Below, piece by piece: positions 9,305-55,616 of a DNA stretch of 64,000 nt; within the stretch, counting starts at the first letter, position 1, and each line of letters opens with the position of its first letter. A program made the translations under genes and the position numbers. This DNA comes from Alphaproteobacteria bacterium. Its GTDB lineage: Bacteria > Pseudomonadota > Alphaproteobacteria > RF32 > CAG-239. Where the stretch lies: positions 21,945 to 85,944 of the forward strand of contig JBGUGE010000076.1 of the NCBI GenBank assembly GCA_045111335.1, given 5' to 3'. Under the pieces are notes generated by a model. The model was not told where the DNA came from. It made no database searches and saw only the letters and a program-made list of their open reading frames with translations.

Positions 9305-11824
9305 ATGTTTAGCAAAGCAAAAATTTGTAAGGTTGCTTTATCAGCCTTGACTGTATTGTTTTCTGCTGTAAGCACGGCTTCCGCATCGGAATTGGATTTG
9401 GTAATTCCGAATTTGGCGGACGCAACTTATAGTATTTTCGGCCATAATACGATTTTTGGCCTGCCGATTACCGGTAATTTGCTGCTCTTGTGCGGTATGG
9501 TTATCTGCCTTTTGGGTATGATTTTCGGCTTGTGGGAATTTTTCAGCATTAAGAAAATGCCGGCACATGAAGCCATGCTCAAAGTGTCGGAAACAATTTA
9601 TGCTACCTGCACAACCTATATGAAACAACAAGCTAAATTGCTGTTTGTTTTGGAATTGTTCATCGGTGCTTGCATAGTTTATTATTTTGCCGGCCTGAAC
9701 AGCACTCCGTTGCCGCAGGTTGCGATTATTCTGCTGTGGTCGATTTTGGGTATTTTAGGCTCATTTACGGTTGCATGGTTTGGAATGCGCATTAACACAT
9801 ATGCCAACTCTCGCACTTCTTTTGCTTCGCTTAAAGGTAACGCTTATCCGGTAATGCATTTGCCGTTGCGTTCGGGCATGTCTATCGGCGTTTTGCTGAT
9901 TTGCGTTGAGCTGATTATGATGATGTTCATTTTGGTATTTGTTCCGCGTGAAACGGCCGGTGCCTGCTTTATCGGCTTTGCCATCGGTGAATCTTTGGGT
10001 GCTTCGGCGTTGCGTATTTGCGGCGGTATCTTTACCAAAATTGCCGATATTGGTGCCGATTTGATGAAGATTATCTTTAAAATTGACGAAGATGATGCGC
10101 GCAATCCGGGCGTTATCGCCGACTGCACCGGCGACAATGCCGGCGATTCCTGCGGCCCGACAGCGGATGGTTTTGAAACATACGGTGTTACCGGTGTGGC
10201 TTTAATCAGCTTCATTGTTTTGGCTGCCGGATATTTCTTCACCTCTGAGGGTAATTTGGCGGCGGATATTCATGCTCCTGAGTTGCAAGCCCGCTTGATT
10301 ACGTGGATTTTCGTGATGCGTATTTTGATGATTATTACCTCAGTATTCTCGTATGCCATCAACGGCTTCTTCTCTAAGCTGATTTACGGTAAATCTAAGG
10401 AATTTGACTTTGAAAAGCCTTTAACTAGCCTGATTTGGATTACTTCGTTAGTATCCATTGTCGTTACTTTTGCGGTTTCTTATATTATGTTGCCGCAAAG
10501 AAATTTCGGCCCGAATATCTGGTGGGAAATGTCGGTTATCATCAGCTGCGGTACTTTGGCGGCGGCGATTATTCCGGAATTTACCAAAATCTTTACTTCG
10601 TCGAAGTCAAAACATGTTCAGGAAGTTGTTAATGCCAGTCGTGAGGCCGGCGCCTCGCTGAACATTCTTTCGGGTATTGTTTCCGGTAACTTCTCCGGCT
10701 TCTGGCAGGGTGTGGTTATTGCCGGCCTGATGGGCTTGGCTTATGCTACGGCTTCCGGCTATGTTGCCGATTTGATGAGCGTTTTGTTCGGCTACGAGGT
10801 TTTGGAACAGTCGCACATCGGTGCCATTATGATTTATCCGACGGTATTTGCATTCGGTTTGGTGGCGTTCGGTATGCTCGGCATGGGACCGGTAACGATT
10901 GCCGTAGACAGCTACGGTCCGGTTACCGACAATGCTCAGTCAGTATTTGAATTGTCGCAAATCGAAAGCCTGAAGGGCATTAAAAAGGAAATCAAAAAGG
11001 AATACGGTTTCGATCCTGACTTTGAACATGGTAAACACTTGCTTGAAGCCAACGATTCGGCCGGTAACACCTTTAAGGCCACCTCTAAGCCGGTATTAAT
11101 CGGTACGGCGGTTATCGGTGCTACCACCATGATTTTCTCAATCATTTTGCTGTTGCATTTGGAATTGAACCTGATTGACGCTCGCGTATTAATCGGTCTG
11201 ATTTTGGGCGGCGCGGTTATTTATTGGTTCTCCGGCGCGGCAATTCAGGCGGTTTCTACCGGTGCTTATCGCGCAGTGAATTACATTAAAGAACATATTA
11301 AACTTGATACCAAGAAGGCGGCCTCGGTTGATGATTCGAAGACGGTGGTTAAAATCTGCACTCAGTATGCGCAGAGAGGTATGTTCAATATCTTTATTGT
11401 GATTTTCTCATTTGCTATTGCGTTTGCATTCTTCGGACCGGAGCTGTTTGCCAGCTACCTGATTTCAATCGCTATCTTCGGTCTTTATCAGGCACTTTAC
11501 ATGGCTAATGCCGGTGGCGCTTGGGATAATGCCAAAAAAGTGGTTGAGGTTGATTTGAATGAAAAAGGTACATCTTTGCACGATGCCTCGGTTGTCGGCG
11601 ATACGGTCGGAGATCCGTATAAAGATACGGCATCGGTTGCCTTGAACCCGATTATCAAATTCACAACCTTGTTCGGCCTGCTTGCGGCAGAAATGTCAGC
11701 CAAAGTATCGGAAGAAAATCCGAATGTTGCTTTGGGCATTGCCTGCACGTTCCTGGCTATTGGCTTGGTATTCGTATGGCGCTCCTTCTACGCTATGCGA
11801 ATTGAGGCTAAAAAAATGGATTAA
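9305..11824 (+). CDS. hppA: membrane-bound proton-translocating pyrophosphatase (M-PPase), divergent and long form
   Basis: M-PPase motifs GDNAGD, DSYGPVTDNA, GNTFKATSKP and DTVGDPYKDT, with many TM segments. ATG 9305 is preferred over 9266 because of the AAGGAAGG SD. Confidence 0.9.
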   Translation: MFSKAKICKVALSALTVLFSAVSTASASELDLVIPNLADATYSIFGHNTIFGLPITGNLLLLCGMVICLLGMIFGLWEFFSIKKMPAHEAMLKVSETIYATCTTYMKQQAKLLFVLELFIGACIVYYFAGLNSTPLPQVAIILLWSILGILGSFTVAWFGMRINTYANSRTSFASLKGNAYPVMHLPLRSGMSIGVLLICVELIMMMFILVFVPRETAGACFIGFAIGESLGASALRICGGIFTKIADIGADLMKIIFKIDEDDARNPGVIADCTGDNAGDSCGPTADGFETYGVTGVALISFIVLAAGYFFTSEGNLAADIHAPELQARLITWIFVMRILMIITSVFSYAINGFFSKLIYGKSKEFDFEKPLTSLIWITSLVSIVVTFAVSYIMLPQRNFGPNIWWEMSVIISCGTLAAAIIPEFTKIFTSSKSKHVQEVVNASREAGASLNILSGIVSGNFSGFWQGVVIAGLMGLAYATASGYVADLMSVLFGYEVLEQSHIGAIMIYPTVFAFGLVAFGMLGMGPVTIAVDSYGPVTDNAQSVFELSQIESLKGIKKEIKKEYGFDPDFEHGKHLLEANDSAGNTFKATSKPVLIGTAVIGATTMIFSIILLLHLELNLIDARVLIGLILGGAVIYWFSGAAIQAVSTGAYRAVNYIKEHIKLDTKKAASVDDSKTVVKICTQYAQRGMFNIFIVIFSFAIAFAFFGPELFASYLISIAIFGLYQALYMANAGGAWDNAKKVVEVDLNEKGTSLHDASVVGDTVGDPYKDTASVALNPIIKFTTLFGLLAAEMSAKVSEENPNVALGIACTFLAIGLVFVWRSFYAMRIEAKKMD

Positions 11825-11854
11825 GTGTTGACTAATTCGTTTTAGTTTGTTAGA

Positions 11855-11885
11855 ACGGCGGCATTGTTATAATGTCGCCGTTTTT
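11855..11885 (+). terminator. putative rho-independent terminator after hppA
   Basis: Stem ACGGCG/CGCCGT with a 15-nt loop, followed by TTTTT. It overlaps the upstream alternative start of the next ORF. Confidence 0.45.
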
Positions 11886-11898
11886 AATGGAGAAAGAA

Positions 11899-12522
11899 AT
11901 GAATATTACCGAAATACTGTCGTCATTTGATTTAACTCAATTTTTCGGGGCTTTTGTGGTTCTGTTTGCTATTATTGATATTATCGGTACTTTACCGATT
12001 GTAATGAATTTACAACGCAACGGCAGAATAGTCAGTGCATCGCGTGCCAGTATTATCTCTTTGTTGCTGTTTGTGGGCTTTATGTATATGGGAGAGGCTT
12101 TTTTAAGCCTGTTCAGCTTGGATATTTCTTCATTTGCGGTGGCCGGATCAATAATCGTGTTCATCATTGCCATGGAGATGGTTTTGGATATCGAAATCTT
12201 CCGCCCGAATAAGGTTGCCGGTAATGACGCCACCTTTACTCCGGTAGTGTTTCCTCTGATTGCCGGTGCCGGTTCGTTTACGACATTGTTGTCGATTCGC
12301 TCGCAATTTTCGGATTTTAATATTCTGTTGGCGTTGGTTGCCAATGTATTGGTTGTTTATGTTGTTCTTAAATCGTCGGCAAAATTAGAAAAAATCCTGT
12401 CTCCGGGAGTGATTTGTATTTTCCAAAAGGCGTTTGGGATTATTTTGCTTTCAATTTCGGTTAAGCTGTTTACGTCAAATCTTACGATGATTGTTGCCGA
12501 TTTGACACATTGTCAGGGATAA
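11899..12522 (+). CDS. MarC-family (UPF0056) integral membrane protein
   Basis: About 6 TM segments with MarC-like sequence (FAIIDIIGTLPIV...FPLIAGAGSFTT). ATG 11899 has a GGAGA SD. Confidence 0.7.
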   Translation: MNITEILSSFDLTQFFGAFVVLFAIIDIIGTLPIVMNLQRNGRIVSASRASIISLLLFVGFMYMGEAFLSLFSLDISSFAVAGSIIVFIIAMEMVLDIEIFRPNKVAGNDATFTPVVFPLIAGAGSFTTLLSIRSQFSDFNILLALVANVLVVYVVLKSSAKLEKILSPGVICIFQKAFGIILLSISVKLFTSNLTMIVADLTHCQG

Positions 12523-12628: not shown

Positions 12629-12655
12629 AAGGCCTCCGTAAAGGAGGCTTCTTTC
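12629..12655. terminator. bidirectional rho-independent terminator (marC-family gene / T4CP operon)
   Basis: Stem GCCTCC/GGAGGC with loop GTAAA. It is flanked by an A-run upstream and a T-rich tract downstream, between convergent genes. Confidence 0.6.
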
Positions 12656-12671: not shown

Positions 12672-14885
12672 TTAAGCCTGTGGAGCATCCATTTCAAAGC
12701 CGTCGACTTCCTCCTCCTCGGCGTTGTATTCAATGCCCAATTTGGCCAGCATATCGTCGTTGATATCTTCACGTTGTGCCACAATCCAATCCGGCACATT
12801 GGCGCACGGCGGCAGCTTGGCCAACTTCGTCATCTTCTTATCCAAATACCAACGCGGCGAGTCGGCGATAATCGGGCGGTCAATATGGCTTTGCATCAAT
12901 ACCACTTGTTTAAGCATCGGCAAACTCAACAGTTGGGTTGAGCTGATAACCGGAATGCCCTGCAATTGGTAGTTCACGTTCTTTGCCAGCGGGTTAAAGT
13001 CTTTACCCAGAGAACCTTCCGTACGCGAGAATGACGAAATTCTGACCGTCTTGTTGCCGATCATCTTAGAGAAGCGTTGCGCCGTAACCTCGTTGTTTTG
13101 GGAAAGAATAACCTTGCAGGCAGTGGTAGAAATCACCGTTTCCAAATCATCTTTTCCGTATTTACCGGAAATTTGCCCCAAGTCTTGTCCGATGAGCAGA
13201 TACGACACCTTTTGGCCACGACCTACGGCCGGTCCGTCAATAATCGCTTTCATCTTCGGCATTTGCGGGAACTCGTCGAGCACGAACAGGGCAGGGAACG
13301 GCCCCATCTTGCCGTCGGTACGGTTAACGTGATTCGGCGGGTTGGAAATCAAGTAAGAAGACATCAACTCAATAAAGGTTGAGCTGATAACGCCCAAAGC
13401 GCGGGCATCTACCTGGTTAACCGACAGATACACCGAAATCGGCTTCCACTCACCGGTAATCGGGTCTTTCATTCCGCGCAAATCCTTAAATTGCAAATCG
13501 GAAAAACTGGTACGCGCTTTAACCGCTTGGTTTTTGAACACGTTAATTCCGGCAAAGGCGGTTGAAAGAATAGAGCCGCGTTCCTTATCCGGAGTGTTGC
13601 TGAGCGTACTCAATTCGGTTACGCAACGTTGGGCATAACCGTAATTACGTGCTTCTTTAATCGCTTCTTCAAGCATATCGTGCGTCGGGTCGGCCATAGC
13701 CGCCATCTGATCACCTTCATCCAAGCGGCGTTGAATTTCCTGAGCGGCATTAATTTGTGCTTCGGTAATCCATTCCATAATCATGGCAATACACGCCTCA
13801 CGCCCCATCCAGCGCGACGGCAAAAGGTTCCATGTACCGATCGGTAAATAGTTTTCCATGGTCAGAGTGCCGTTCTTCAGGTTTTGAATGGCGCGCGGTG
13901 CTCCCGGATCACGCATATCCTGATAATAACCTTCCAACACTTCCTTATCTTTTTCATCAAGCTTGCCCTCATAAATGCGGCCGATAAAATAGTCGTTGGC
14001 GCGGGCGCGGTCACACTTGGAAACCACAAATTGAATAAAACCGGTTAATGCGGCACGACCGGTTTGCGACCAGTGCGGGTCAGCGCCGCCTTTCGGATCT
14101 TCCACCAAAATATTGCACATGGAATCCACATACATATCGCGATCCGGTCCCTGTTCCGGAATACAGTTCGGTGACAGCGGATTCCAGCTCGGATAATAAA
14201 TACCTTCACTCGGGTTATCTTCAGCACCCCAGTTGATGATGAATACCGGCCCTACCTTAGCGCGGGCACCTGATGTTTTGTAACACAACTCCGGCTTCGG
14301 GTCGTTAATCACCAAACTTAATCCCTCAGAGTGGAAAATAGTCGGCATCACCACGCCCACGGTTTTACCGGTACCAGGAGGCGCGCAGCACAATGTGGCG
14401 AGTGTTTCTTTTAAGAGCAGAAATTTGCCGTCAAATTTACCGACCACTTGGCAGAAACCGTCAAAACCCAAAAGCGGCATTTTCTTAATATCTCGCAAAT
14501 CGGCAATTTTGGCCTGACCTTGATAATTAACTTGGAATTTGTACGGACTGAACAAGGCACTGATAATAATGCCGAGCGGAATGGTAATGAACGGCAGAAT
14601 AGGAATCCACAGGCTTAAAGAAAATTCGCCGCGATGATTCCATAATTGCTTCCACCACTTACCGTACATTGTGAACAAGTGATCCGGATTTCTGAAGATT
14701 ACGCCCAAGAATTTTTGCACCATTGCCGTGGACGACTTAGAAATGCCGTTGCCGACAATGTATGACAGCGGCAATCCGAAAATAAAGAAGAAAATACTCA
14801 ACAACGTGCATATCAGCAAAGTAATCAACATCCATTTGACCGCTTTGTCATATTCTTTCCATTCTTCGCCACGCTCGCCTGCCAT
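12672..14885 (-). CDS. type IV secretion coupling protein (VirD4/TraG/DotL-class ATPase)
   Basis: Two N-terminal TM segments, Walker A CCAPPGTGKT (nt 14361-14384), INDPKPEL, and Walker B LFVLDEFPQM (nt 13269-13289). An IGQDLGQI...VILSQNN block follows, as in T4CPs. AAGAGGA SD. Confidence 0.8.
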   Translation of the reverse strand: MAGERGEEWKEYDKAVKWMLITLLICTLLSIFFFIFGLPLSYIVGNGISKSSTAMVQKFLGVIFRNPDHLFTMYGKWWKQLWNHRGEFSLSLWIPILPFITIPLGIIISALFSPYKFQVNYQGQAKIADLRDIKKMPLLGFDGFCQVVGKFDGKFLLLKETLATLCCAPPGTGKTVGVVMPTIFHSEGLSLVINDPKPELCYKTSGARAKVGPVFIINWGAEDNPSEGIYYPSWNPLSPNCIPEQGPDRDMYVDSMCNILVEDPKGGADPHWSQTGRAALTGFIQFVVSKCDRARANDYFIGRIYEGKLDEKDKEVLEGYYQDMRDPGAPRAIQNLKNGTLTMENYLPIGTWNLLPSRWMGREACIAMIMEWITEAQINAAQEIQRRLDEGDQMAAMADPTHDMLEEAIKEARNYGYAQRCVTELSTLSNTPDKERGSILSTAFAGINVFKNQAVKARTSFSDLQFKDLRGMKDPITGEWKPISVYLSVNQVDARALGVISSTFIELMSSYLISNPPNHVNRTDGKMGPFPALFVLDEFPQMPKMKAIIDGPAVGRGQKVSYLLIGQDLGQISGKYGKDDLETVISTTACKVILSQNNEVTAQRFSKMIGNKTVRISSFSRTEGSLGKDFNPLAKNVNYQLQGIPVISSTQLLSLPMLKQVVLMQSHIDRPIIADSPRWYLDKKMTKLAKLPPCANVPDWIVAQREDINDDMLAKLGIEYNAEEEEVDGFEMDAPQA

Positions 14886-14902
14886 TTTAATTTCCTCTTA
14901 AA

Positions 14903-16426
14903 TTATTTTATATTCTTCAATAATTTGCGCAAGTTTTCCGTATCTTTCTTTGAAACTTTGCCATCGGCTTCGGTCAACAACTTCGAAAACAGCTTAATTT
15001 CCTTAGGAGCTCCGCGATTAATGCGGGTAACTTCTATTCCCATGTCGTTCCATATATCGAACATATCGTCGGCGTTGATGATGTTTGCCATCTGAATAAC
15101 AACGCATGAGGTAACTTTTTGTTCAAATCCGCCATCATCCAAAGCTTCCTCAATGTCTTTTTTGACGCTGTTCAGTTTGCATACCGGCGATACACGGTGA
15201 CTGCTTTCCGAAAACCACAGCGGCTCTTCTCCGTTAAACATTTCCTCGTCGGCCAACCAATCACCGCTTTCTTTATCAATCAGGCACAAATAGATATCAC
15301 TCTCAGATACACCGATAAAGTCGATAAGTGTATTTTTGACGGTGACATTACTGATAATCTCATATCCCTTTTGTGCCAACGCATCATATACCGGACCATG
15401 AGGAGTACCTGCCGCCTTACTTTCAACCGTACGACCGCGCCGATTGCGCGTAACTTCGCCCTCATCCTCGTCCTCCTCAGGTTGGATGCGAGTACTGCGA
15501 TGCGGCATTTCCTCATTGCGACGGGAAGTTCTGCGTGTGTCTCGCTCGCGCGGCTTGCTTTCACGGCGGGCGGTGCGAGCTGCTTCAAACGAATCTTCAT
15601 CATCTTCATTTTCGTCTTCGTCTTCATCATCAAAGTCATATTTAGGCTTTGAGCGCTTAGCGCGTGAAAACTCTTCATCATCATCAACCGGAGCGCGTTT
15701 TCTCGGCTTAGATTCCGTGGCTGATTTCTTTTTCCCGATATCGGCTTTTTCAAACGAATCGATATCCAAATCAAAATCATCATCGTCATCATCATCAAAT
15801 TTAAACAAGGCATGGTCAATCGTTGCCGCCACATCGGTTTTCTTTTTAACGGTAGCCGGAGCCGGAGCCGGAGCCGGTGTCGGTGCGGAGTACGGCGCAG
15901 TATAGCTTGAACCTACCGCCGTTGCCATCGGCGCAGAAGAGGCGGTGTTACCGTAGTCGGAAATCGGTACGCGTAAAGTGTTAATCCCTGTCGGGCGAAT
16001 CAGCTTATACGATTTGCGCTTCACGACGCCGTAACGGTTGTTGACACTCGCTCCCGCATTTACGGAAACTCCGCGAATATATTTCATATACAGCGTGTAC
16101 GGAAGTTTCAAGATGCTCCAAATAATTTCTTCCCACGCTACCATGCACAGAGTCCACCAACCGGTAATCAGCATCGGGAAAAATACGATAATCAACATTA
16201 TAAACGCCCATTCTTTAGGGGCGCGCGGCACCCAACCGGCTTTCCAAGTGGTAATAAATTGCCGCCAATGATCCGGCCAGAAAATATCAAAATGCCAATT
16301 ACACAGCATAATCACACGGATACCTTCCGTGAAGACAATTCCCCACAGGCAGCCGACAATTAAAATTCTAAGAAATACCAAAATGGATTTCAACTGTGCA
16401 CTCCGTAAGTTTATAAACATACCCAC
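14903..16426 (-). CDS. hypothetical membrane protein: N-terminal TM module, long charged low-complexity linker, C-terminal globular domain (possibly NERD/PD-(D/E)xK-like)
   Basis: 507-aa ORF lying 17 nt upstream of the T4CP start. Hydrophobic segments span aa 14-115, and a low-complexity region spans aa ~155-345. The C-terminal pattern is GYEIISNV...IDFIGVSESDIYLCLIDKESGDW. Confidence 0.6.
   Translation of the reverse strand: MGMFINLRSAQLKSILVFLRILIVGCLWGIVFTEGIRVIMLCNWHFDIFWPDHWRQFITTWKAGWVPRAPKEWAFIMLIIVFFPMLITGWWTLCMVAWEEIIWSILKLPYTLYMKYIRGVSVNAGASVNNRYGVVKRKSYKLIRPTGINTLRVPISDYGNTASSAPMATAVGSSYTAPYSAPTPAPAPAPATVKKKTDVAATIDHALFKFDDDDDDDFDLDIDSFEKADIGKKKSATESKPRKRAPVDDDEEFSRAKRSKPKYDFDDEDEDENEDDEDSFEAARTARRESKPRERDTRRTSRRNEEMPHRSTRIQPEEDEDEGEVTRNRRGRTVESKAAGTPHGPVYDALAQKGYEIISNVTVKNTLIDFIGVSESDIYLCLIDKESGDWLADEEMFNGEEPLWFSESSHRVSPVCKLNSVKKDIEEALDDGGFEQKVTSCVVIQMANIINADDMFDIWNDMGIEVTRINRGAPKEIKLFSKLLTEADGKVSKKDTENLRKLLKNIK
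15854..15877 (-). repeat. tandem hexanucleotide repeat (AGCCGG)x4 inside ORF 14903-16426
   Basis: Four perfect head-to-tail copies on the + strand. On the coding strand they encode PAPAPAPA. Confidence 0.9.
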
Positions 16427-16470
16427 TATATTAATAACACGTAAACGTTAAAAAAGTGAATATATTTTTG

Positions 16471-16947
16471 TTATTTTTCCGACATTTGTATTTTCTCAAT
16501 AATTTCTTTGCGAAAATCAGTAGAATTTCCCTGATTTGACTTCTTTTTTTCTACATCAAGTCGTTCTTTGATAAACTGATCCAGCGTTTTCTTTTCTTCT
16601 ATTTTCAGGTTTTTGATGTTGACATCCGGCGCCACATAACCGTCAAGACCGCTGTTGAATATTTTATTAAGCGGCACCGTAATCAATTTCATGTACTTAA
16701 AATGATACAACCGGAACCAACCGTAAATACACAGCGGAATCATTAACAGAATCACCAAAATGATGCACAAATCTTTACCCTGAACGATATGCCCCTGATC
16801 CCAAAAATCAGCCAAACTGATGTAAAAATATAACGGATTGGTGTGATACACCAGCAAAATAATCAGATGCACCAGACCGGCTAAAAAAGCAGTCCACAGG
16901 GCACAAGCAATAATCACGCAAACATAATGAAAAAACTGTTTAATCAT
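16471..16947 (-). CDS. hypothetical small membrane protein, apparent paralogue of the N-terminal module of ORF 14903-16426
   Basis: 158 aa with 2-3 TM segments and a Lys/Glu-rich tail. ATGA overlap with the upstream 816-aa ORF. Confidence 0.55.
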   Translation of the reverse strand: MIKQFFHYVCVIIACALWTAFLAGLVHLIILLVYHTNPLYFYISLADFWDQGHIVQGKDLCIILVILLMIPLCIYGWFRLYHFKYMKLITVPLNKIFNSGLDGYVAPDVNIKNLKIEEKKTLDQFIKERLDVEKKKSNQGNSTDFRKEIIEKIQMSEK

Positions 16948-19394
16948 CGACGAGTGTTCCCATTATTTCTGGAGGAGCTGCCTGTCTGACGGGAATCAGT
17001 GTCATGTTCGGTGTGATTTTTGAGTTTGTTAAAGTTATCTTTGCGTTGTATATTGCGTTTATTATCGGCTTCGTAGCGCTCTTTTCGGTCGACAATATCT
17101 TGATTCCATGCTTTTTCTTTGCGCTCGCCGGTTCTTTCTTCGCGTGCTGCTTGCTCCATACCCATTCTTTCCGTATTTCTGCTGACAGCGCGCGGTTGCA
17201 CCTCTTGCTCGTCTTCCGGCTCGCGATATTTGTTATACGCCTTATCGAACACTGCACCCTGTGCGCGAATTTCCTGTTCTAACAGCTTCTTTTGCGTGGC
17301 GTCAGCGGTAATATGATGTTCGCATAGTTTAAAGCCCAGATTTCTGCCGGCAACACTGATATCCGACAAATACGTATCACGCATTTCGGCAGCAGCGGCA
17401 TCCATAATATCCTTTTGCTGCTTAAGCGATAATTTGGCATTCGGGTCGAGGTTTTTCTCGTGCTTAAAGTCAATTTCCTTTTGCTCATAAATCTTCGAAA
17501 TGGTTTCAGCCATATCATACATTTTAACCAGAGTATCTTTGCGAATTTTCTCCGCCGCCGCAGCATTGCCGACAAGCTCTTTGTCAGGATTTTTACGAAC
17601 ATAATCCATTGTTGCCAAATATGAACACATGTATATTTGCTCTTCCGAAAACATGGTTTGTAAGAATTTCGGATTCTTCTCTAAAACATCCATGTTTTTC
17701 ACAAACAAGTCTTTATCGGCCATATAAGAATTGTTGAGCTTGGCAATAAATCCCTGATGATTGGCCGGATTAAACCCCGGAACAGGCTTCCATTTGCTCG
17801 GCGCTTTACCGATATTTTGCTTAATATATTTAGTCAAACCGGCGAGCATTTCCGGTTTACCCAATATGCGTTTCACGTCCTGAATATAGGCATCACGGGC
17901 AACAAAAGATATATCCTGCATCTGCTTGAGAAAACCTGTGGCAGCCGGTGACAACGTATTTGCCTGAGAATTTCTTGCCGGAGGTGTGGCACTCGGAGGT
18001 GTTCCGGTAGCCTGATTGCCGGCTTGCTGAGTATTCTGCGGGACCGTTGCGGTAGCCGACTTATGCGGAATTTGACCGGATTCGCCGGTAAGATAATCAA
18101 TTAGGCCGTCAGCTCCCTGAAAAGTCTTTTTAAGTCCGTAGTTAATCAACCCCAAGAACCATACGTTATATAAGTATTTGATTAAATCCTGTTCACTTAC
18201 CGCCTGAAAATCGAATCCGCCAGATCCGTGTTTGGAATCTCTGCCCGGCTTTTCCATTTGCGCCGATTTTTCTTCTTCTTCATCATCTTGCGGATTAGGT
18301 TGCGGCGGAGTGTTGGTCTCAACGTTCAGGTTCTCCGGTTGTGCCGAGAACGTAAGAGTGTTACCGTCTTCCGGCAAGCCGCCAAAACGCACCGGATCCG
18401 GCGTGTTTTCGGTCTGTTCTGCCTGCTTCGGTTGTTGCGGATGTTCGGCGGCAAATCGCACGGCTTTTTCATAAGCATCTTTCATCATGAACGATTTTTT
18501 AGCCAAGTCACTGTATCTAATCTTGCGTCCGGTGGTGCTGTTTTCATGATTAAAGGCTTCATAAAGCATATCCGCATCAAAATTTTTGAGCGTATCCTGA
18601 ATTTCAACCATGGTTTGTGCATTATTATACAATATTTCACGGGTTTGCGGGTCTTTGATGCGCTTTTCCTTAAATTCAAGTGCATAAGTATTCATTGCCA
18701 CCACATCAAGCATACTCTTGCCGCTTTGCGGGTTAGGCTGAGTAATAAACTCGACGATTTGCTTATTATCGACTTTCCCTTCCTGTTGCAGCTGTTGCAA
18801 AGCCTTGAGCGTATTATTTATGCCGGACAGATTCTGAAATCCCAATTTTTCGGTTTCTTTGGAACCTTCAGGCACCGGAGCCGGAAACATCAAGGTCCGG
18901 AAAAGCGCCTTTTGAGAATCCGAAAGCTGATCCAAGCCGAATTTTTCTATTCCGGCCTTAATTGTATCAACATCAAAGTGTCCCTTTTTCAATTCTTTAC
19001 AAAAGAGAATAAATTCATCATCCGCTGTTTTCGGTTTGTCGGTGTTTTCCTCTTGGCTATCCTGATATTCGGAAGCTTTTGCCAACGGAACGGATTCGGT
19101 TTTTTTGGTTTTTTCGTTATAAAAAGCAATGTTCAGTGATTTATCTTCGGATTCATCGTTATAGATAACCGGTCGTTGCAGGTGCGGATTATTTTTCATA
19201 AATGCATAAACCCCTTTAACCTGAGCCTCGTTGATGATGCAGTTGCGCTGAATAATATCGAGATTTTTATTCGGATCGCTGTTGTGCACCAAGCGAATTA
19301 CTCCGTCGCCGTCATTATAAAAGCTCGGTTTGCTGCTTGTAATCGTGAACTCGGATAAGTCGATGTTCGTAAAATCTTCCGTTCTATCAGCCAT
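16944..19394 (-). CDS. large hypothetical protein (816 aa), no recognisable domain
   Basis: Long uninterrupted ORF with native codon usage and an AGGAG SD. It has Q/P/T-rich linkers, one short central hydrophobic stretch, and a basic C-terminal ~100 aa. Confidence 0.6.
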   Translation of the reverse strand: MADRTEDFTNIDLSEFTITSSKPSFYNDGDGVIRLVHNSDPNKNLDIIQRNCIINEAQVKGVYAFMKNNPHLQRPVIYNDESEDKSLNIAFYNEKTKKTESVPLAKASEYQDSQEENTDKPKTADDEFILFCKELKKGHFDVDTIKAGIEKFGLDQLSDSQKALFRTLMFPAPVPEGSKETEKLGFQNLSGINNTLKALQQLQQEGKVDNKQIVEFITQPNPQSGKSMLDVVAMNTYALEFKEKRIKDPQTREILYNNAQTMVEIQDTLKNFDADMLYEAFNHENSTTGRKIRYSDLAKKSFMMKDAYEKAVRFAAEHPQQPKQAEQTENTPDPVRFGGLPEDGNTLTFSAQPENLNVETNTPPQPNPQDDEEEEKSAQMEKPGRDSKHGSGGFDFQAVSEQDLIKYLYNVWFLGLINYGLKKTFQGADGLIDYLTGESGQIPHKSATATVPQNTQQAGNQATGTPPSATPPARNSQANTLSPAATGFLKQMQDISFVARDAYIQDVKRILGKPEMLAGLTKYIKQNIGKAPSKWKPVPGFNPANHQGFIAKLNNSYMADKDLFVKNMDVLEKNPKFLQTMFSEEQIYMCSYLATMDYVRKNPDKELVGNAAAAEKIRKDTLVKMYDMAETISKIYEQKEIDFKHEKNLDPNAKLSLKQQKDIMDAAAAEMRDTYLSDISVAGRNLGFKLCEHHITADATQKKLLEQEIRAQGAVFDKAYNKYREPEDEQEVQPRAVSRNTERMGMEQAAREERTGERKEKAWNQDIVDRKERYEADNKRNIQRKDNFNKLKNHTEHDTDSRQTGSSSRNNGNTRR

Positions 19395-19475
19395 TTGAGA
19401 ATCTCCTGCCTAACATATAATTTTTATTAAATATAACATAAAAAAACGTTTTTGTCCACATTTATTTTATTTTGC

Positions 19476-20423
19476 CTAAACTTTTACCTTTTTCATAAAT
19501 TTGCCGATTTCTATATTAACACGAATCCCGTCCTTGGGAGTGACCTTAATCAGCCCGAAGAGACGCGGCTTAATTTTGGCAAAATCAATCGGCGCAAAAA
19601 TTGCCGGATTGGTGGTCAGGGCTTGAAATGCGCCGTCCACATCCTTTTGTGCCACTCGGAAATAGTTACTGATTAAGCGCTCGGCATCAATCGGAAAATC
19701 TTTCTTTTCGACTTCTTCCACAAACCGATTCTGTCGCTCTTTACGTGCCAAATATTCTTCATACAGCAGGCGTTTGATGTGTTTTTCCTGATATTTGATG
19801 AGTTTTGCCTGATAAGACAACTCACAACTTTCCATATCAATTAAAATTTCAACATAAGAAATAACGGCCAACTGCAAATCCTGATCGCGCAACGTTTCGG
19901 CAAAATTCAAAAATTCTTCATCGGTTGACGTTACCTGAAACCGCCCGACACTTTCCGGAAAAGCCTCGCGCAAAACGTTCCATCCCGTAATCAGGTCATC
20001 GGCCAGCAAATGACCGACACTCGGCTTATAATTCGGGTACAGATAATCGATTTCAAAACGCCAGTCAATGGCCGGAAGTTGCTTGGCTACGCAAATTTTA
20101 TTAATGGAGCTTTTATAGTTGATAAAGGCCTGTGCCAATTCCGATTCCTCACTTTTTAACTCCGGTGTTTTTTCATCTTCATCAATCACCGCGCGGGCGT
20201 ATTCAAATGTTTCCGCCAACTCCGAATCAAGTTCTTCCGAAGCTGCTTTGTTTTCGGCTTCTCCCTGCTCGCTTAAGGTAAAATCGTCTTTTGCCGTATC
20301 GGCAGAAGGTTTGTTTTCTGTCTTGTCATCGTCGTCCTCAAAGTCGTCAACTTTGGAGTTAATAAAGCTGTTTAAGAGTTTTTCAAAATCGTCGCCGTCG
20401 CTGAAAGTATCGTCTTCATTCAT
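19476..20423 (-). CDS. hypothetical protein with strongly acidic N-terminal ~100 aa
   Basis: 315-aa ORF, the first gene of the minus-strand cluster. It is divergent from rluD, and I recognised no motif. Confidence 0.55.
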   Translation of the reverse strand: MNEDDTFSDGDDFEKLLNSFINSKVDDFEDDDDKTENKPSADTAKDDFTLSEQGEAENKAASEELDSELAETFEYARAVIDEDEKTPELKSEESELAQAFINYKSSINKICVAKQLPAIDWRFEIDYLYPNYKPSVGHLLADDLITGWNVLREAFPESVGRFQVTSTDEEFLNFAETLRDQDLQLAVISYVEILIDMESCELSYQAKLIKYQEKHIKRLLYEEYLARKERQNRFVEEVEKKDFPIDAERLISNYFRVAQKDVDGAFQALTTNPAIFAPIDFAKIKPRLFGLIKVTPKDGIRVNIEIGKFMKKVKV

Positions 20424-20451
20424 AAAATAAGCACTCCTCGTTAAACTTTTC

Positions 20452-20480
20452 TTGCAATTGAGTATATCAACCCTTATTAT
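20452..20480 (+). promoter_or_regulatory. putative sigma70-type promoter for rluD
   Basis: TTGCAA-N17-TATTAT, 42 nt upstream of the rluD ATG. Confidence 0.4.
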
Positions 20481-20521
20481 AAAATAAAAGCAAAATCGTA
20501 AAAATAATATAAAAAGGCGAC

Positions 20522-21596: not shown

Positions 21597-22469
21597 ATGG
21601 AAACTGCTCTTACCGGACTGGACTTTTCGCCTGACACTAATCTGTCGCGTTATTTACAAAACATTCGCAAATATCCGCTTTTATCGCAGGAAGAAGAATA
21701 CGAATTAGCGGTAAAATATAAGGAAACTCAAGACAAAGATATTGCATACAAGCTGATTACGGCGCATTTGCGCTTGGTAATCAAAGTTGTTTCAAAATAT
21801 AAAGGCTACGGTTTGCCGATTAACGAAATGATTTCGGAAGGTAATATCGGGCTTTTATATGCCATTAACAAATTTGAACCGGATAAAGGCTTTCGCTTTT
21901 CAACCTACGCTTTGTGGTGGATTAAGGCGGCGGTGCAAAAATATATTTTAAACTCATGGTCGCTGGTTAAATTGGGTACTACCGCGGCGCAGAAAAAGTT
22001 GTTTTTTAATCTGCGCAAAATCAAAAACAATCTCAATTTAACCGATGATCGTGAACTTTCCAATCAAATTATTCAAGATATTGCCGATTCGCTTGATGTC
22101 AGTGCTCAGGAAGTTACCGACATGAATACACGACTGAAGGCACATGACGGCTCGCTGAATATTTCGGTTGATTCTCAGAGTGCGGAAGGGGGTGCCGAGT
22201 GGATTGATTTTATTTATGATACCAAGCCCAATCAGGAAGAACAGCTGGCATATCGCGAAACCATGAACTATCGGCGCAAACTGTTCAATCGCGCGATTAC
22301 TGTGCTCAATCCGCGTGAAAAAGATATTCTGTATAAGCGTCGGATGAGTGAAGAAAGCATTACTTTGGACGATTTAAGCAGAACCTATAATATTTCTAAG
22401 GAACGAGTGCGTCAAATTGAGCTCAATTCGATTCGCAAAATCACCAAGGCCATCGAATTAATGCAATAG
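21597..22469 (+). CDS. rpoH: RNA polymerase sigma-32 factor RpoH
   Basis: Sigma70 regions 2-4, plus a RpoH-box-like QKKLFFNLRK. Confidence 0.9.
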   Translation: METALTGLDFSPDTNLSRYLQNIRKYPLLSQEEEYELAVKYKETQDKDIAYKLITAHLRLVIKVVSKYKGYGLPINEMISEGNIGLLYAINKFEPDKGFRFSTYALWWIKAAVQKYILNSWSLVKLGTTAAQKKLFFNLRKIKNNLNLTDDRELSNQIIQDIADSLDVSAQEVTDMNTRLKAHDGSLNISVDSQSAEGGAEWIDFIYDTKPNQEEQLAYRETMNYRRKLFNRAITVLNPREKDILYKRRMSEESITLDDLSRTYNISKERVRQIELNSIRKITKAIELMQ

Positions 22470-53564: not shown

Positions 53565-55616
53565 ATGTCGGAAGCAAAAACGCAAAGGGAACGCAATCAA
53601 AGCATTTTAGATACGTATGACGGATCGGATATATACCATCCGCAGGTGATTTTGCGCAAGGTAAATCAGGTTGATGGCAATGTGCTCGATGATGAATTAT
53701 TCGGGGTTAAACTTAGTTGTTGTCGTGATTATGATTTCTCTTATGTTTGGGATCAATTGCCGGAAAATTTTAAGTGGGCGGCATACGGTATCGTCGATTT
53801 TATAACACAATATAATGAGTTGTTGAAACATCCGACGGAACGGATACATTTGGAGGCGTTGGCGCAAAATGGCCGGATTTTTATCGAAGACCGTTGTTCT
53901 TCCACCAGAGGAAACTCTAAAAGCGGTGGATACGAAGGAATGTCAACTTTTATTTATGGAAAGCCGGCAATAGTATTGGTGGCTCGGTACTGCAATAGAG
54001 AAACTTTATTGCATGAGGCTATACATAATTCTGACTTGCGTGTATACAGGTATAAAGGCAGTTTCAGCGCCCAAAAGATTTATCAGGCGGCGATTATGAT
54101 GCTTGACGCCCAAAAGATACAATCTTCAAGGGGCTATGAAAGCGTTAAATGTTTGCGTAAAATCAACAGAATTTATCAAGACGGCGAAATATATGCCGAA
54201 GGTCTGGCCTGGATTACCTCAATGCCGATGGAAAAATTGGCCAAGGAAAAAAATCATATCGGTAAAAACCTCAAGATTTTGCATTCTCTCTATACCGAAG
54301 CCTCAGTATCTTTGAAAAATCAACTGGCTGTAATAGAATATTTTCAATTCTGGCAACCGTCGGCGCATATCGCCAAATTGTTGGAAGTCTATAACAAAAA
54401 TGGGCAAAAAATCGGTAAAGAGCGCAATAAAATCCTCAAGCAGCAGAAGCATTTTTGGGATGAGTTGATGAAATTCCGCAAAGAAATCAACAAACTCAAA
54501 GTGCGCGGTATACAATGCAATTCTTTATCTTTAAATGCCGGTGCTCTGACTTATTGTCAAAATAACGGGGTTAATTCGTTACTTCCGGCATATTTAGCTC
54601 AAGATACGTTCAGAAAGTCCTATCAATCCGTCAATGATGATGAAAAGGATGAGATTGCCAACCACTGTTTGCATACGGAAATGCTGAAAACATTGTTTGC
54701 CGATATTAAACCGGCTGATTTCAGTCATCCGGCGCTGTTTGCGGAAAAGTTTTTGACGTGTCGTGAATATCTGTTCAAAATGAGATCTGATTTTTTGCAT
54801 CAAAATAACGTCGCGAGTTTGTTTGATACCTTGAATGCAGATAAAAAGTTGAGCGGAATTGCGGCGCGCTATATGCTTTATAATAATATGAAAGCGTTGA
54901 TCGAGATTGCCTATATGCAAACACATTCTCATTGTTCTGATAAAGAATGCACTTTGGCGTATTTATACGATATACGTCCAGAAACCGCCGCGACCAGAGA
55001 TATGCTCGTTCAACTTAAATTGAAAGAAGCCGATTCTGTTGAGCAAAAGAGATCTCTTACAGAAAGGGCAATTAATCGGGCTCAAGAAGAATTGTCTCAC
55101 AGAACATTAAGAGGCGACAGGTTTCTTGCAGATGCAGTTTGGGCAACCGAGCATTTGCTCAAAGAATATAATTTGCCGTCGGGTATTCATGGTATTTTGC
55201 AACTTGACGACTTGCAGAATTTTAGTGTTTCGGCGAATGTTGTGCGTGATTTGCAATGGATTGAAGCCAAAAACGGCGATGATGGATTGCCGGCGGAGAT
55301 GTATCGACATTTTGAGCCGGGAATCATCGCCGATTATTGCAGCAGACCGACCGATGCCTTTAATCCGAAAAGTGAAGATTATGTGCCGAATAATTACCTT
55401 AATTCCGATTCGAAAAAGGTTGCACATACTCGGGCATTGTATGAGTTTTTGGCCTTGCGGCACGCGTATCAGGCTAAAACTCATTGTAAAAAATTTCCGC
55501 CTAATTTGCGATTGAATGCGTTTACGCCTAACTCTGATTATTATAGACAAATCAGGTCATTATCGGCGCCGCAAAAAGCTCCGACAAGCGAAACAAACGG
55601 CAATACAGGGAAATGA
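53565..55616 (+). CDS. hypothetical 683-aa protein with an HExxH motif (possible zinc metallopeptidase/effector)
   Basis: Long ORF with an AAGGAAAG SD. HEAIH lies at aa 150-154 (nt 54012-54026). AGA/AGG Arg codons are frequent. Confidence 0.6.
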   Translation: MSEAKTQRERNQSILDTYDGSDIYHPQVILRKVNQVDGNVLDDELFGVKLSCCRDYDFSYVWDQLPENFKWAAYGIVDFITQYNELLKHPTERIHLEALAQNGRIFIEDRCSSTRGNSKSGGYEGMSTFIYGKPAIVLVARYCNRETLLHEAIHNSDLRVYRYKGSFSAQKIYQAAIMMLDAQKIQSSRGYESVKCLRKINRIYQDGEIYAEGLAWITSMPMEKLAKEKNHIGKNLKILHSLYTEASVSLKNQLAVIEYFQFWQPSAHIAKLLEVYNKNGQKIGKERNKILKQQKHFWDELMKFRKEINKLKVRGIQCNSLSLNAGALTYCQNNGVNSLLPAYLAQDTFRKSYQSVNDDEKDEIANHCLHTEMLKTLFADIKPADFSHPALFAEKFLTCREYLFKMRSDFLHQNNVASLFDTLNADKKLSGIAARYMLYNNMKALIEIAYMQTHSHCSDKECTLAYLYDIRPETAATRDMLVQLKLKEADSVEQKRSLTERAINRAQEELSHRTLRGDRFLADAVWATEHLLKEYNLPSGIHGILQLDDLQNFSVSANVVRDLQWIEAKNGDDGLPAEMYRHFEPGIIADYCSRPTDAFNPKSEDYVPNNYLNSDSKKVAHTRALYEFLALRHAYQAKTHCKKFPPNLRLNAFTPNSDYYRQIRSLSAPQKAPTSETNGNTGK

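Follow-up and report, generated by a model that had tools for sequence, protein, structure and literature searches.

A conserved chromosomal operon of gut alphaproteobacteria centred on a VirD4/TraG-family coupling protein

We analysed 64,000 nucleotides of DNA from an alphaproteobacterium (GenBank assembly GCA_045111335.1, contig JBGUGE010000076.1, forward-strand positions 21,945 to 85,944), called the window below. On its minus strand, at positions 12672-20423, five co-directional open reading frames (ORFs) form one operon that encodes a type IV coupling protein (T4CP) and four partners. T4CPs are regarded as substrate receptors that feed the VirB4-based channel of a type IV secretion system (T4SS). 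Counted from the T4CP end, the products have 737, 507, 158, 816 and 315 amino acids, and the partners are named after their lengths, P507, P158, P816 and P315. The spacings obtained from the coordinates, in the direction of transcription, are 81 nt, a 4-nt overlap, 44 nt and 17 nt. Gene order, positions and spacings all match the original prediction, an earlier note made from the DNA letters alone. The features of the operon are the following.

12632-12648, minus strand: intrinsic terminator that closes the operon, GCCTCC-TTTAC-GGAGGC, with a GC-rich stem of 6 bp, a 5-nt loop and the tail CTTTTTATTA
12672-14885, minus strand: T4CP, VirD4/TraG-family coupling ATPase, 737 amino acids (Pfam, Walker motifs)
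14903-16426, minus strand: P507, membrane-tethered nuclease-fold partner, 507 amino acids (AlphaFold2, Foldseek)
14906-15393, minus strand: C-terminal PD-(D/E)xK / NERD-like domain of P507, residues 345-507 (AlphaFold2, Foldseek, Pfam)
15394-16078, minus strand: disordered linker of P507, residues ~117-344 (predicted local distance difference test, pLDDT, below 50)
16079-16393, minus strand: membrane module of P507, true residues ~12-116 (AlphaFold2, conservation in 85 sequences, hhalign)
16471-16947, minus strand: P158, small inner-membrane protein with two transmembrane (TM) helices and a charged cytoplasmic tail (hhalign, position)
16944-19394, minus strand: P816, highly charged, hypervariable soluble protein (positional orthologs)
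16947-17036, minus strand: basic C-terminal tail of P816, last 30 amino acids (tail charge of orthologs)
18105-18206, minus strand: amphipathic motif of P816, residues ~397-430 (alignment of orthologs)
19476-20423, minus strand: P315, cytoplasmic all-alpha protein, 315 amino acids (AlphaFold2)
20424-20521, no strand: divergent intergenic region between P315 and rluD, 98 nt (position)

The hairpin and T-run of the terminator begin 24 nt past the stop codon of the T4CP and fall inside 12629-12655, where a terminator had been predicted. P507 is identical (100%) to the NCBI protein P0236 (496 amino acids), which begins at residue 12, a TTG at 16393. This is probably the start of P507, and the gap between P158 and P507 would then be 77 nt, not 44 nt. 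The 98-nt region between P315 and rluD is presumed, from its position only, to be the promoter region of the operon; promoter-like matches across the region are no commoner than in shuffled sequence.

According to Pfam, the T4CP contains the T4SS-DNA_transf domain (PF02534, E-value 6.6e-57, 193.8 bits against a gathering cut-off of 20.1), the TraG-D_C domain (PF12696, 2.6e-21, 76.3 against 22) and the TrwB_AAD_bind domain (PF10412, 3e-17, 63.0 against 20.5). The Walker A motif (APPGTGKT, residue 168) is invariant in 83 orthologs, and so are the residues D-E-F of Walker B (LFVLDEF, residue 533). The N-terminus has two hydrophobic helices, read from the sequence at residues ~17-41 and ~89-113, with a loop of ~47 residues between them. 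At the other end the protein keeps a conserved segment, PNVPDWIVAQREDINDDMLAKLGIEY, followed by an acidic tail with a net charge of -11 over the final 40 amino acids. Across the clade of the host the cytoplasmic domains are 84-88% conserved and the TM region 48-62%. The T4CP is shown to be an intact, genuine VirD4/TraG-family ATPase under very strong constraint, and its earlier assignment to this class, made from the Walker motifs, the two TM stretches and the acidic tail, is borne out.

The T4CP belongs to no named T4CP family. It falls below every curated VirD4, TraG or TraD equivalog cut-off of NCBIfam (122-140 bits against 250-728), among them those for VirD4, Ti or IncP TraG, F TraD and CD1115; the best equivalog score is 140 bits against a cut-off of 250, the VirD4 model PRK13897 gives 121.8 against 728, and no DotL/IcmO model is among the NCBIfam matches. 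A profile of the family matches two solved structures, Cag-beta of Helicobacter pylori (8dol, E-value 3e-13) and TrwB (1e9r, 1e-3), and does not match DotL among the PDB sequences at E<=0.01. A single-sequence phmmer search of the T4CP against the PDB gave no match.

Among 72,556 plasmids the closest T4CPs have only 31-34% identity, and for the nearest relatives linked to a channel the range is 31-35%. On alphaproteobacterial megaplasmids, these T4CPs are encoded right behind virB11, in loci that hold the complete set virB2-virB11. These are type IVA loci, so we infer that the T4CP descends from the type IVA VirD4 proteins and not from the type IVB DotL line. One of two readings offered by the original prediction, a divergent type IVB-like coupling subcomplex, is therefore not upheld: there is no DotL match, and the nearest relatives linked to a channel are of type IVA. 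With type IVA T4CPs such as VirD4 of Agrobacterium, Cag-beta and TrwB of R388, the protein has in common the domain set, the two TM helices and the Walker motifs. It differs from them in being chromosomal and vertically inherited, in lying in 64 kb that contain no virB, relaxase or pilin gene, and in having four partners that are known from no T4SS, belong to no known coupling-complex subunit family and carry no functional annotation.

Relatives of the T4CP were sought in one genome per GTDB species, which gave 201 stretches; source and identity were taken from 80 listed loci. A relative occurs in more than 200 GTDB species, and all of the 80 listed loci come from uncultured gut or rumen alphaproteobacteria, as metagenome-assembled genomes (MAGs), with a T4CP identity of 73-96%. 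The hosts among them include Azospirillum sp. 51_20, Candidatus Scatocola, which NCBI files under Rhodospirillales, and the RUG/RGIG rumen bins. We take the host clade to be the GTDB order RF32.

In ~70 of 82 fetched loci the gene order is the same, rpoH and rluD (both on the minus strand) followed by the P315-like gene, the variable protein, the P158-like gene, the P507-like gene and the T4CP; the original prediction would have been refuted by a neighbourhood that no relative shares. Nearly all genomes have the five ORFs intact. Identity to the window ranges from 73 to 96% for the T4CP, 58 to 94% for RpoH, 61 to 86% for RluD, 36 to 75% for P315, 34 to 79% for P507, 21 to 77% for P158, and from undetectable to 50% for proteins of the P816 type. 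The T4CP is thus conserved like RpoH and lies in the core chromosome. In one subclade (L013, L016, L019 and L037) a four-gene core, made of the variable protein, P158, P507 and the T4CP, has been relocated beside cysS/gltX, gyrB or secY, and P315, which is missing from this four-gene form, has no homolog within 10 kb. The conserved synteny together with the constraint indicates that the operon is ancient, vertically inherited and strongly selected, and that it is not an island.

The surroundings agree with this. On one side the operon is flanked by an H+-PPase and MarC, on the other by an RluD-type pseudouridine synthase and an RpoH-like sigma factor. The GC content is flat and unremarkable across the operon region, and scans for tRNA genes, Rfam families and repeats found no tRNA gene, Rfam match or flanking repeats of the mobile-element type, and neither an integration site nor the boundaries of an element; no integrase is present either. 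The largest ORFs of the rest of the window are, according to Pfam, those of a core chromosome: dnaE, addAB, murJ, an AcrAB-TolC-type efflux system of the resistance-nodulation-division family, an ABC transporter and a histidine kinase. The earlier view that this is native chromosome, not a recent insertion, holds on the flat GC content, the lack of tRNA genes and repeats, and the clade-wide synteny with rluD-rpoH. The descent of the T4CP from plasmid-type VirD4 proteins would also fit a decaying remnant of an integrated conjugative element that has no present function. We give this explanation almost no credence. Five ORFs that are intact in nearly every genome, invariant Walker motifs and cytoplasmic domains whose conservation equals or exceeds that of RpoH effectively refute decay.

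At locus L077 (2760-8695) the trio of P315-like, variable and P158-like genes appears to be tandemly duplicated upstream of P507 and the T4CP. The copies encode 282, 533 and 134 amino acids and then 282, 533 and 160; the duplication may be real or an assembly artefact.

P816 is the fastest-evolving member of the operon. A positional ortholog is always present, with a length that varies from 427 to 1069 amino acids, and the mean column identity is 12%. No TM segment is predicted in P816, and no Pfam domain was found in P816-type proteins (five orthologs or lineages scanned). The only conserved internal motif is amphipathic, ..EQDLIKYLYNVWFLGLINYGL.., with the family consensus KExDIIxYMYxxWLIxxxNW; it holds the sole invariant or near-invariant columns of the alignment, and a search with the motif recovers most orthologs. 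The second conserved feature is the basic C-terminal tail, which ends ...SRQTGSSSRNNGNTRR. Of 72 distinct orthologs, 92% carry a net positive charge over the final 30 amino acids, compared with 35% of internal windows. In 34 of the 72 the dipeptide GR is found among the last six residues, for a background of 1%. The sequences are related, so that these figures overstate their independence. The tail has been kept in a protein that has otherwise changed almost throughout. Substrates of VirB/D4 systems carry positively charged C-terminal signals, a class that the tail of P816 resembles, and on this ground P816 is a candidate client or substrate of the T4CP.

To find channel genes, all VirB2-B11 proteins of the closest system on a plasmid served as tblastn queries against the 64-kb window and against 10 kb around the T4CP in each relative. 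No match at E<=0.01 was found in the window or in the 82 related loci of ~22 kb. The statement of the original prediction that the window has no T4SS channel, relaxase or pilin gene is in line with this blank search and with the housekeeping nature of the largest ORFs.

The T4CP of the host clade belongs to a wider lineage. When 1.84 billion cluster representatives were searched exhaustively, relatives of the T4CP over its full length appeared at 54, 50, 44, 41 and 34-37% identity. Eight contexts of seven distant relatives were fetched, and all are chromosomal, have housekeeping flanks and contain no virB gene.

L087/L094, T4CP identity 54%: a ribbon-helix-helix protein, then a 387-amino-acid homolog of P507 whose gene overlaps the start of the T4CP
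L089 (a Rickettsiales MAG), T4CP identity 50%: small uncharacterised neighbours
L091, T4CP identity 50%: small uncharacterised neighbours
L095 (GCA_016735395.1), 10001-12166, T4CP identity 44%: solitary, between the rpmI-rplT-pheST and rpsF-rpsR-rplI ribosomal-protein operons
L090, L092 and L093, T4CP identity 36-41%: a soluble pentapeptide-repeat protein with a strongly basic tail directly upstream

Like the T4CP of the window, the seven sister T4CPs are below all NCBIfam cut-offs. In a neighbour-joining tree of 20 sequences, a small and biased sample that can only be indicative, the chromosomal T4CPs with no virB gene nearby split from those that are linked to virB on plasmids (bootstrap 91%), and the clade of the window is monophyletic with 100%. 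The tree and the NCBIfam scores place the ATPase outside the ordinary conjugative clade; a place inside it was among the outcomes by which the original prediction could have been refuted.

These chromosomal T4CPs (L087/L094, L089-L093 and L095) are of the same lineage as that of the window, at 36-54% identity. They differ from it in their partners, which are pentapeptide-repeat proteins, small proteins or none; only L087/L094 shares a partner of the P507 type. No homolog of P315, P816 or P158 was detected in L087-L090, nor among the genes immediately adjacent in L091-L093. The pentapeptide-repeat genes (L090:8772-10001, L092:8672-9997 and L093:8971-9978) are mutually homologous and encode a KYDFP-like motif, and a pentapeptide-repeat protein next to an orphan T4CP looks like a recurrent pair. 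Their tails are even more basic than the tail of P816. The tails of the T4CPs are acidic (net charge -6 to -17) in the host clade, in L090 and in L092, all of which have a neighbour with a basic tail, and also in L087 (-7). The tail of the L093 T4CP is +2 despite its basic-tailed partner, and the tails of solitary and virB-linked T4CPs are not strongly acidic. Small proteins beside two of the distant orphan T4CPs have prepilin-like N-termini, L087:13456-13803 (G|RSMVEML...) and L089:9503-9958 (G|ASMFETV...).

P507 has 713 family members, all of the host clade and annotated only as hypothetical. The AlphaFold2 model, built with an alignment of 85 sequences, shows four N-terminal helices, ~220 disordered residues and a confident C-terminal domain. 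The numbering of the model is the true residue number minus 11; its helices 2-30, 40-51, 59-83 and 87-105 correspond to true residues 13-116, and true numbering is used for all other residues. The membrane module has two TM helices. In the first of them E34 and R37 (codons 16324-16326 and 16315-16317) are invariant in 85 of 85 sequences, and in the Trp-rich loop of the module D47, H53 and W54 are invariant in the same set. Invariant charged residues inside a TM helix would be odd for a simple anchor and suggest a functional contact within the membrane.

P158 is homologous to this membrane module over 104 columns (hhalign probability 98.9%, E-value 9.8e-18) and is found at the same operon position in nearly all loci. 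By this alignment it is a paralog of the P507 module, which implies a hetero-oligomeric membrane assembly. According to the positive-inside rule the N- and C-termini of P507 and P158 should be cytoplasmic, which would place the nuclease-fold domain of P507 in the cytoplasm.

In the linker of P507 acidic and basic blocks alternate, all with pLDDT below 50. It contains a conserved motif, DH(A/S)LFKFDD..DDFD.DIDSF, with H205, F208, D223 and F225. The linker DNA also holds a direct repeat of 56 nt with 73% identity (15579-15634 and 15744-15799), which encodes an acidic run plus SFE.A twice.

The C-terminal domain of P507 is modelled with a pLDDT of 84-95 and the topology alpha-beta-beta-beta-alpha-beta-alpha-beta. 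The leading matches of P507 in a Foldseek search of the PDB are PD-(D/E)xK nucleases, with probabilities of up to 0.99 and weak E-values of 7e-3 to 0.3. They comprise AF1548 (1y88), EndoMS (5gke), the nickase N.BspD6I, the R2 retrotransposon endonuclease, Card1 and Can2. A profile search against PDB sequences returned only low-complexity noise. The Pfam family NERD gives P507 of the window an E-value of 4e-4 and 21.2 bits, below the gathering score of 22.1; it matches 12 of 50 family members at E<=0.01 (best 1.2e-5), and three database relatives carry a precomputed PF08378 assignment. The original prediction had described the four partners as devoid of recognisable motifs. This stands as far as T4SS and integrative and conjugative element families are concerned, none of which is matched, and has to be amended for P507, with its borderline NERD match and nuclease-type fold.

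The candidate metal-binding residues are D369 (83 of 85 sequences), D384 (85 of 85) and E386 (84 of 85), with K385 between the latter two (80 Lys, 5 Arg). They lie on strands 2 and 3 or just past them, and the distant homolog of L087 keeps them. The family signature is an invariant loop of 28 residues, 388-415: G388-D-W-L-A-D-E-E...F397-N...P-L-W-F-S-E...H410-R...S-P-V415. In D384-K385-E386 the canonical Lys of the (D/E)xK motif is replaced by E386, which makes catalytic competence uncertain; the arrangement is presumably akin to that of BamHI-type variants. Nuclease activity of the domain is plausible. The domain shares with NERD/PD-(D/E)xK proteins the alpha-beta-beta-beta-alpha-beta core and the acidic residues on strands 2 and 3, and an N-terminal TM anchor is a known NERD architecture. 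In contrast to NERD proteins, its gene is coupled to that of a T4CP, it is joined to a membrane module of which a second copy exists as a gene of its own, and the loop 388-415 has no identifiable counterpart there. The 387-amino-acid homolog of L087/L094 has both parts of P507, the membrane module (E-value 5e-11) and the nuclease domain (8e-40), so the pairing of P507 with the T4CP is older than the clade.

P315 has 535 family members and is restricted to the host clade. It has the motif DDFEKLLNSFI at its N-terminus, a disordered stretch of acidic character, and a helical domain of ~220 amino acids that is conserved. Its AlphaFold2 model is all-alpha, with a pLDDT above 90 at residues ~90-200. 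The fold search gave no match in the PDB (best E-value 1.1) or in the viral BFVD library (best 0.15), and a profile search against PDB sequences found low-complexity noise only.

The layout of the operon recalls the DotL-DotM-DotN-IcmS-IcmW-LvgA complex of Legionella, with which it shares a T4CP that has a membrane protein encoded just upstream and soluble adaptor-like proteins. On this basis the original prediction had placed P507 in the position of DotM and named DotN, IcmS, IcmW and LvgA for comparison of folds. Neither idea survived: Foldseek gives PD-(D/E)xK nucleases for P507 and no DotM in the top 50, and P315, despite its confident model, resembles no solved structure with an E-value better than 1.1. 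P816 and P158 have no Pfam or NCBIfam match to DotN, IcmS, IcmW or LvgA. Unlike DotL, the T4CP has no long C-terminal extension, with ~45 residues after the ATPase domain. The charges are also reversed, since DotM of Legionella binds acidic effector signals, whereas here the parts of the machine are acidic and the tail of the candidate client is basic. In both systems recognition probably goes through charged linear motifs.

We tentatively prefer, at somewhat below an even chance, to see in the locus a vertically inherited inner-membrane complex centred on the T4CP, in which P816 would be a dedicated client by virtue of its Arg-rich tail, P315 an adaptor, and P507 and P158 membrane proteins assembled with the T4CP. 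The operon is read as a substrate-receptor and motor module derived from type IVA VirD4, in which new accessory proteins replace the known subunits of coupling complexes. In the inner membrane, a hexamer of the T4CP would be accompanied by the paralogous modules of P507 and P158, each with two TM helices. The Arg-rich C-terminus of P816 would be its recognition signal, which may be read by the acidic tail of the T4CP and by the acidic-aromatic motifs of P507 and P315, and P315 would act as a cytoplasmic adaptor or chaperone. ATP hydrolysis would then drive the delivery of P816 into or across the inner membrane. Bound nucleic acid might be delivered with it and be processed by the tethered nuclease-fold domain. 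The delivery would lead to a channel encoded elsewhere in the genome, or would proceed without one.

Several observations weigh against this reading. The argument from the basic tail is based on composition and on related sequences, and P816 could be merely a fast-evolving disordered scaffold. The correlation of acidic T4CP tails with basic partner tails covers ~15 lineages, with L087 and L093 as exceptions. If the function is to export protein to the outside, the route is not evident: no channel gene was found in the 64-kb window or, for 82 relatives, in the 10 kb around the T4CP. Finally, a nuclease-fold domain would be unexpected in a complex that only delivers protein.

The main alternative, which we regard as rather unlikely, is a self-contained machine for handling DNA. 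The membrane-anchored T4CP hexamer would be a DNA translocase of the FtsK/HerA superfamily that moves DNA at the inner membrane, where the tethered P507 would cut it as nuclease or nickase, with no channel involved. It might serve the export or release, the uptake or the clearance of DNA, and P816 and P315 would be associated with DNA or be regulatory. In its favour, D369, D384 and E386 are each kept in 83 or more of the 85 sequences, as well as by the L087 homolog, and the nickase N.BspD6I and EndoMS are among the top fold matches. The gene pair of P507 and the T4CP is kept down to 54% T4CP identity, where a protein of DNA-binding type, the ribbon-helix-helix protein, is encoded just upstream. 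No VirB gene is near the T4CP in more than 80 genomes, and the broader lineage consists of T4CPs in core-genome surroundings with no channel genes nearby. Hexameric ATPases of the FtsK/HerA superfamily are recurrently paired with nucleases, for example HerA with NurA, and the pentapeptide-repeat fold, present in the partners of the sister lineages, mimics DNA. However, the replaced Lys leaves the competence of the domain uncertain, the NERD score of P507 in the window is below the Pfam cut-off, and other members of the lineage have no nuclease partner. The retention of a hypervariable protein with a conserved basic tail would be left unexplained.

A coupling protein encoded with a restriction-endonuclease-fold protein and with no channel genes nearby is also found in the MOB_C system of CloDF13, where the T4CP MobB accompanies the restriction-endonuclease-fold relaxase MobC without channel genes. 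The locus could then be a domesticated mobilisation module of this type, in which P507 is the nickase and DNA of the chromosome or of an element is exported by the operon's own coupling protein through the channels of co-resident conjugative elements. The parallel in gene content and the nickase among the top fold matches speak for it. However, none of the five families matches any CloDF13 ORF of at least 100 amino acids at E<=10 (hmmsearch and phmmer against all such ORFs; the PLSDB annotation of the plasmid is incomplete). Contrary to the plasmid system, the locus is part of the core chromosome and the nuclease-fold protein is anchored in the membrane, whereas relaxases travel with the DNA. 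A fixed core synteny with conservation like that of RpoH does not look like dependence on helper elements that occur sporadically, and there is no tRNA gene, integrase or flanking repeat. We consider a mobilisation module improbable.

The combination of a nuclease-fold effector with an ATPase motor resembles many defence systems, and the extreme variability of P816 could reflect an arms race. In a membrane-bound defence or exclusion system the T4CP-like motor would capture incoming conjugative or phage DNA for the tethered nuclease, with P816 as sensor or decoy. However, PADLOC yielded no family at E<=1 for any of the five proteins, and the PHROGs gave no meaningful match for them either. Defence systems are typically patchy and borne on islands, whereas this operon is uniformly present at a fixed position, under constraint of housekeeping level, in more than 200 species, and its neighbours are housekeeping genes and not defence islands. 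A role in defence appears to us to have little likelihood.

The delivery complex that we prefer leaves room for a channel elsewhere in the genome. A stronger claim, which we hold to be doubtful, is that the T4CP works without any T4SS channel, as an autonomous inner-membrane machine that translocates and processes either DNA or a disordered, basic-tailed protein, equipped with the paralogs of two TM helices and the nuclease-fold domain. Such a machine would belong to the core of a major order of gut and rumen bacteria, and would be one branch of an ancient and so far unrecognised lineage of chromosomal, channel-independent T4CPs with varying partners, of nuclease fold, with pentapeptide repeats or none. 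The original prediction offered as its second reading a membrane ATPase system that is self-contained. The partner with the nuclease fold lends this some support, and so does the lineage of chromosomal T4CPs that have no virB gene nearby.

The T4CP itself is familiar; new are its accessory set, its place in the core genome and its separation from channel genes. The operon adds three protein families, P315, P816 and the membrane module of P507 and P158. It also offers a candidate recognition signal, a basic tail read against an acidic one, and a set of chromosomal T4CPs without nearby virB genes for comparison. If a dispersed channel exists, common gut bacteria of humans and livestock would have a coupling complex of a new kind, which brings its own candidate effector. 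If there is none, a T4CP motor would have been recruited, with a nuclease-fold partner, for a job that needs no channel, which would widen the role of the family. Should these bacteria have no VirB4-based channel at all, the operon would come closer to representing a machine of a new class. In the searchable literature, including a 2025 review of T4SS nomenclature, we found no account of stand-alone chromosomal T4CPs or of NERD or pentapeptide partners.

Two neighbouring genes may be mentioned in addition. At ~38 loci of the deeper branch of the clade, for example L039 (5343-5627), a gene for a membrane protein of ~95 amino acids with the DUF6476 domain lies between rluD and the P315-like gene. 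It is confined to that branch, is absent from the branch of the window, and is probably an unrelated neighbour. Within the window, an ORF of 683 amino acids at 53565-55616 on the plus strand has no Pfam match and lies in the stretch of lowest GC content (0.40-0.42 at 54-58 kb).

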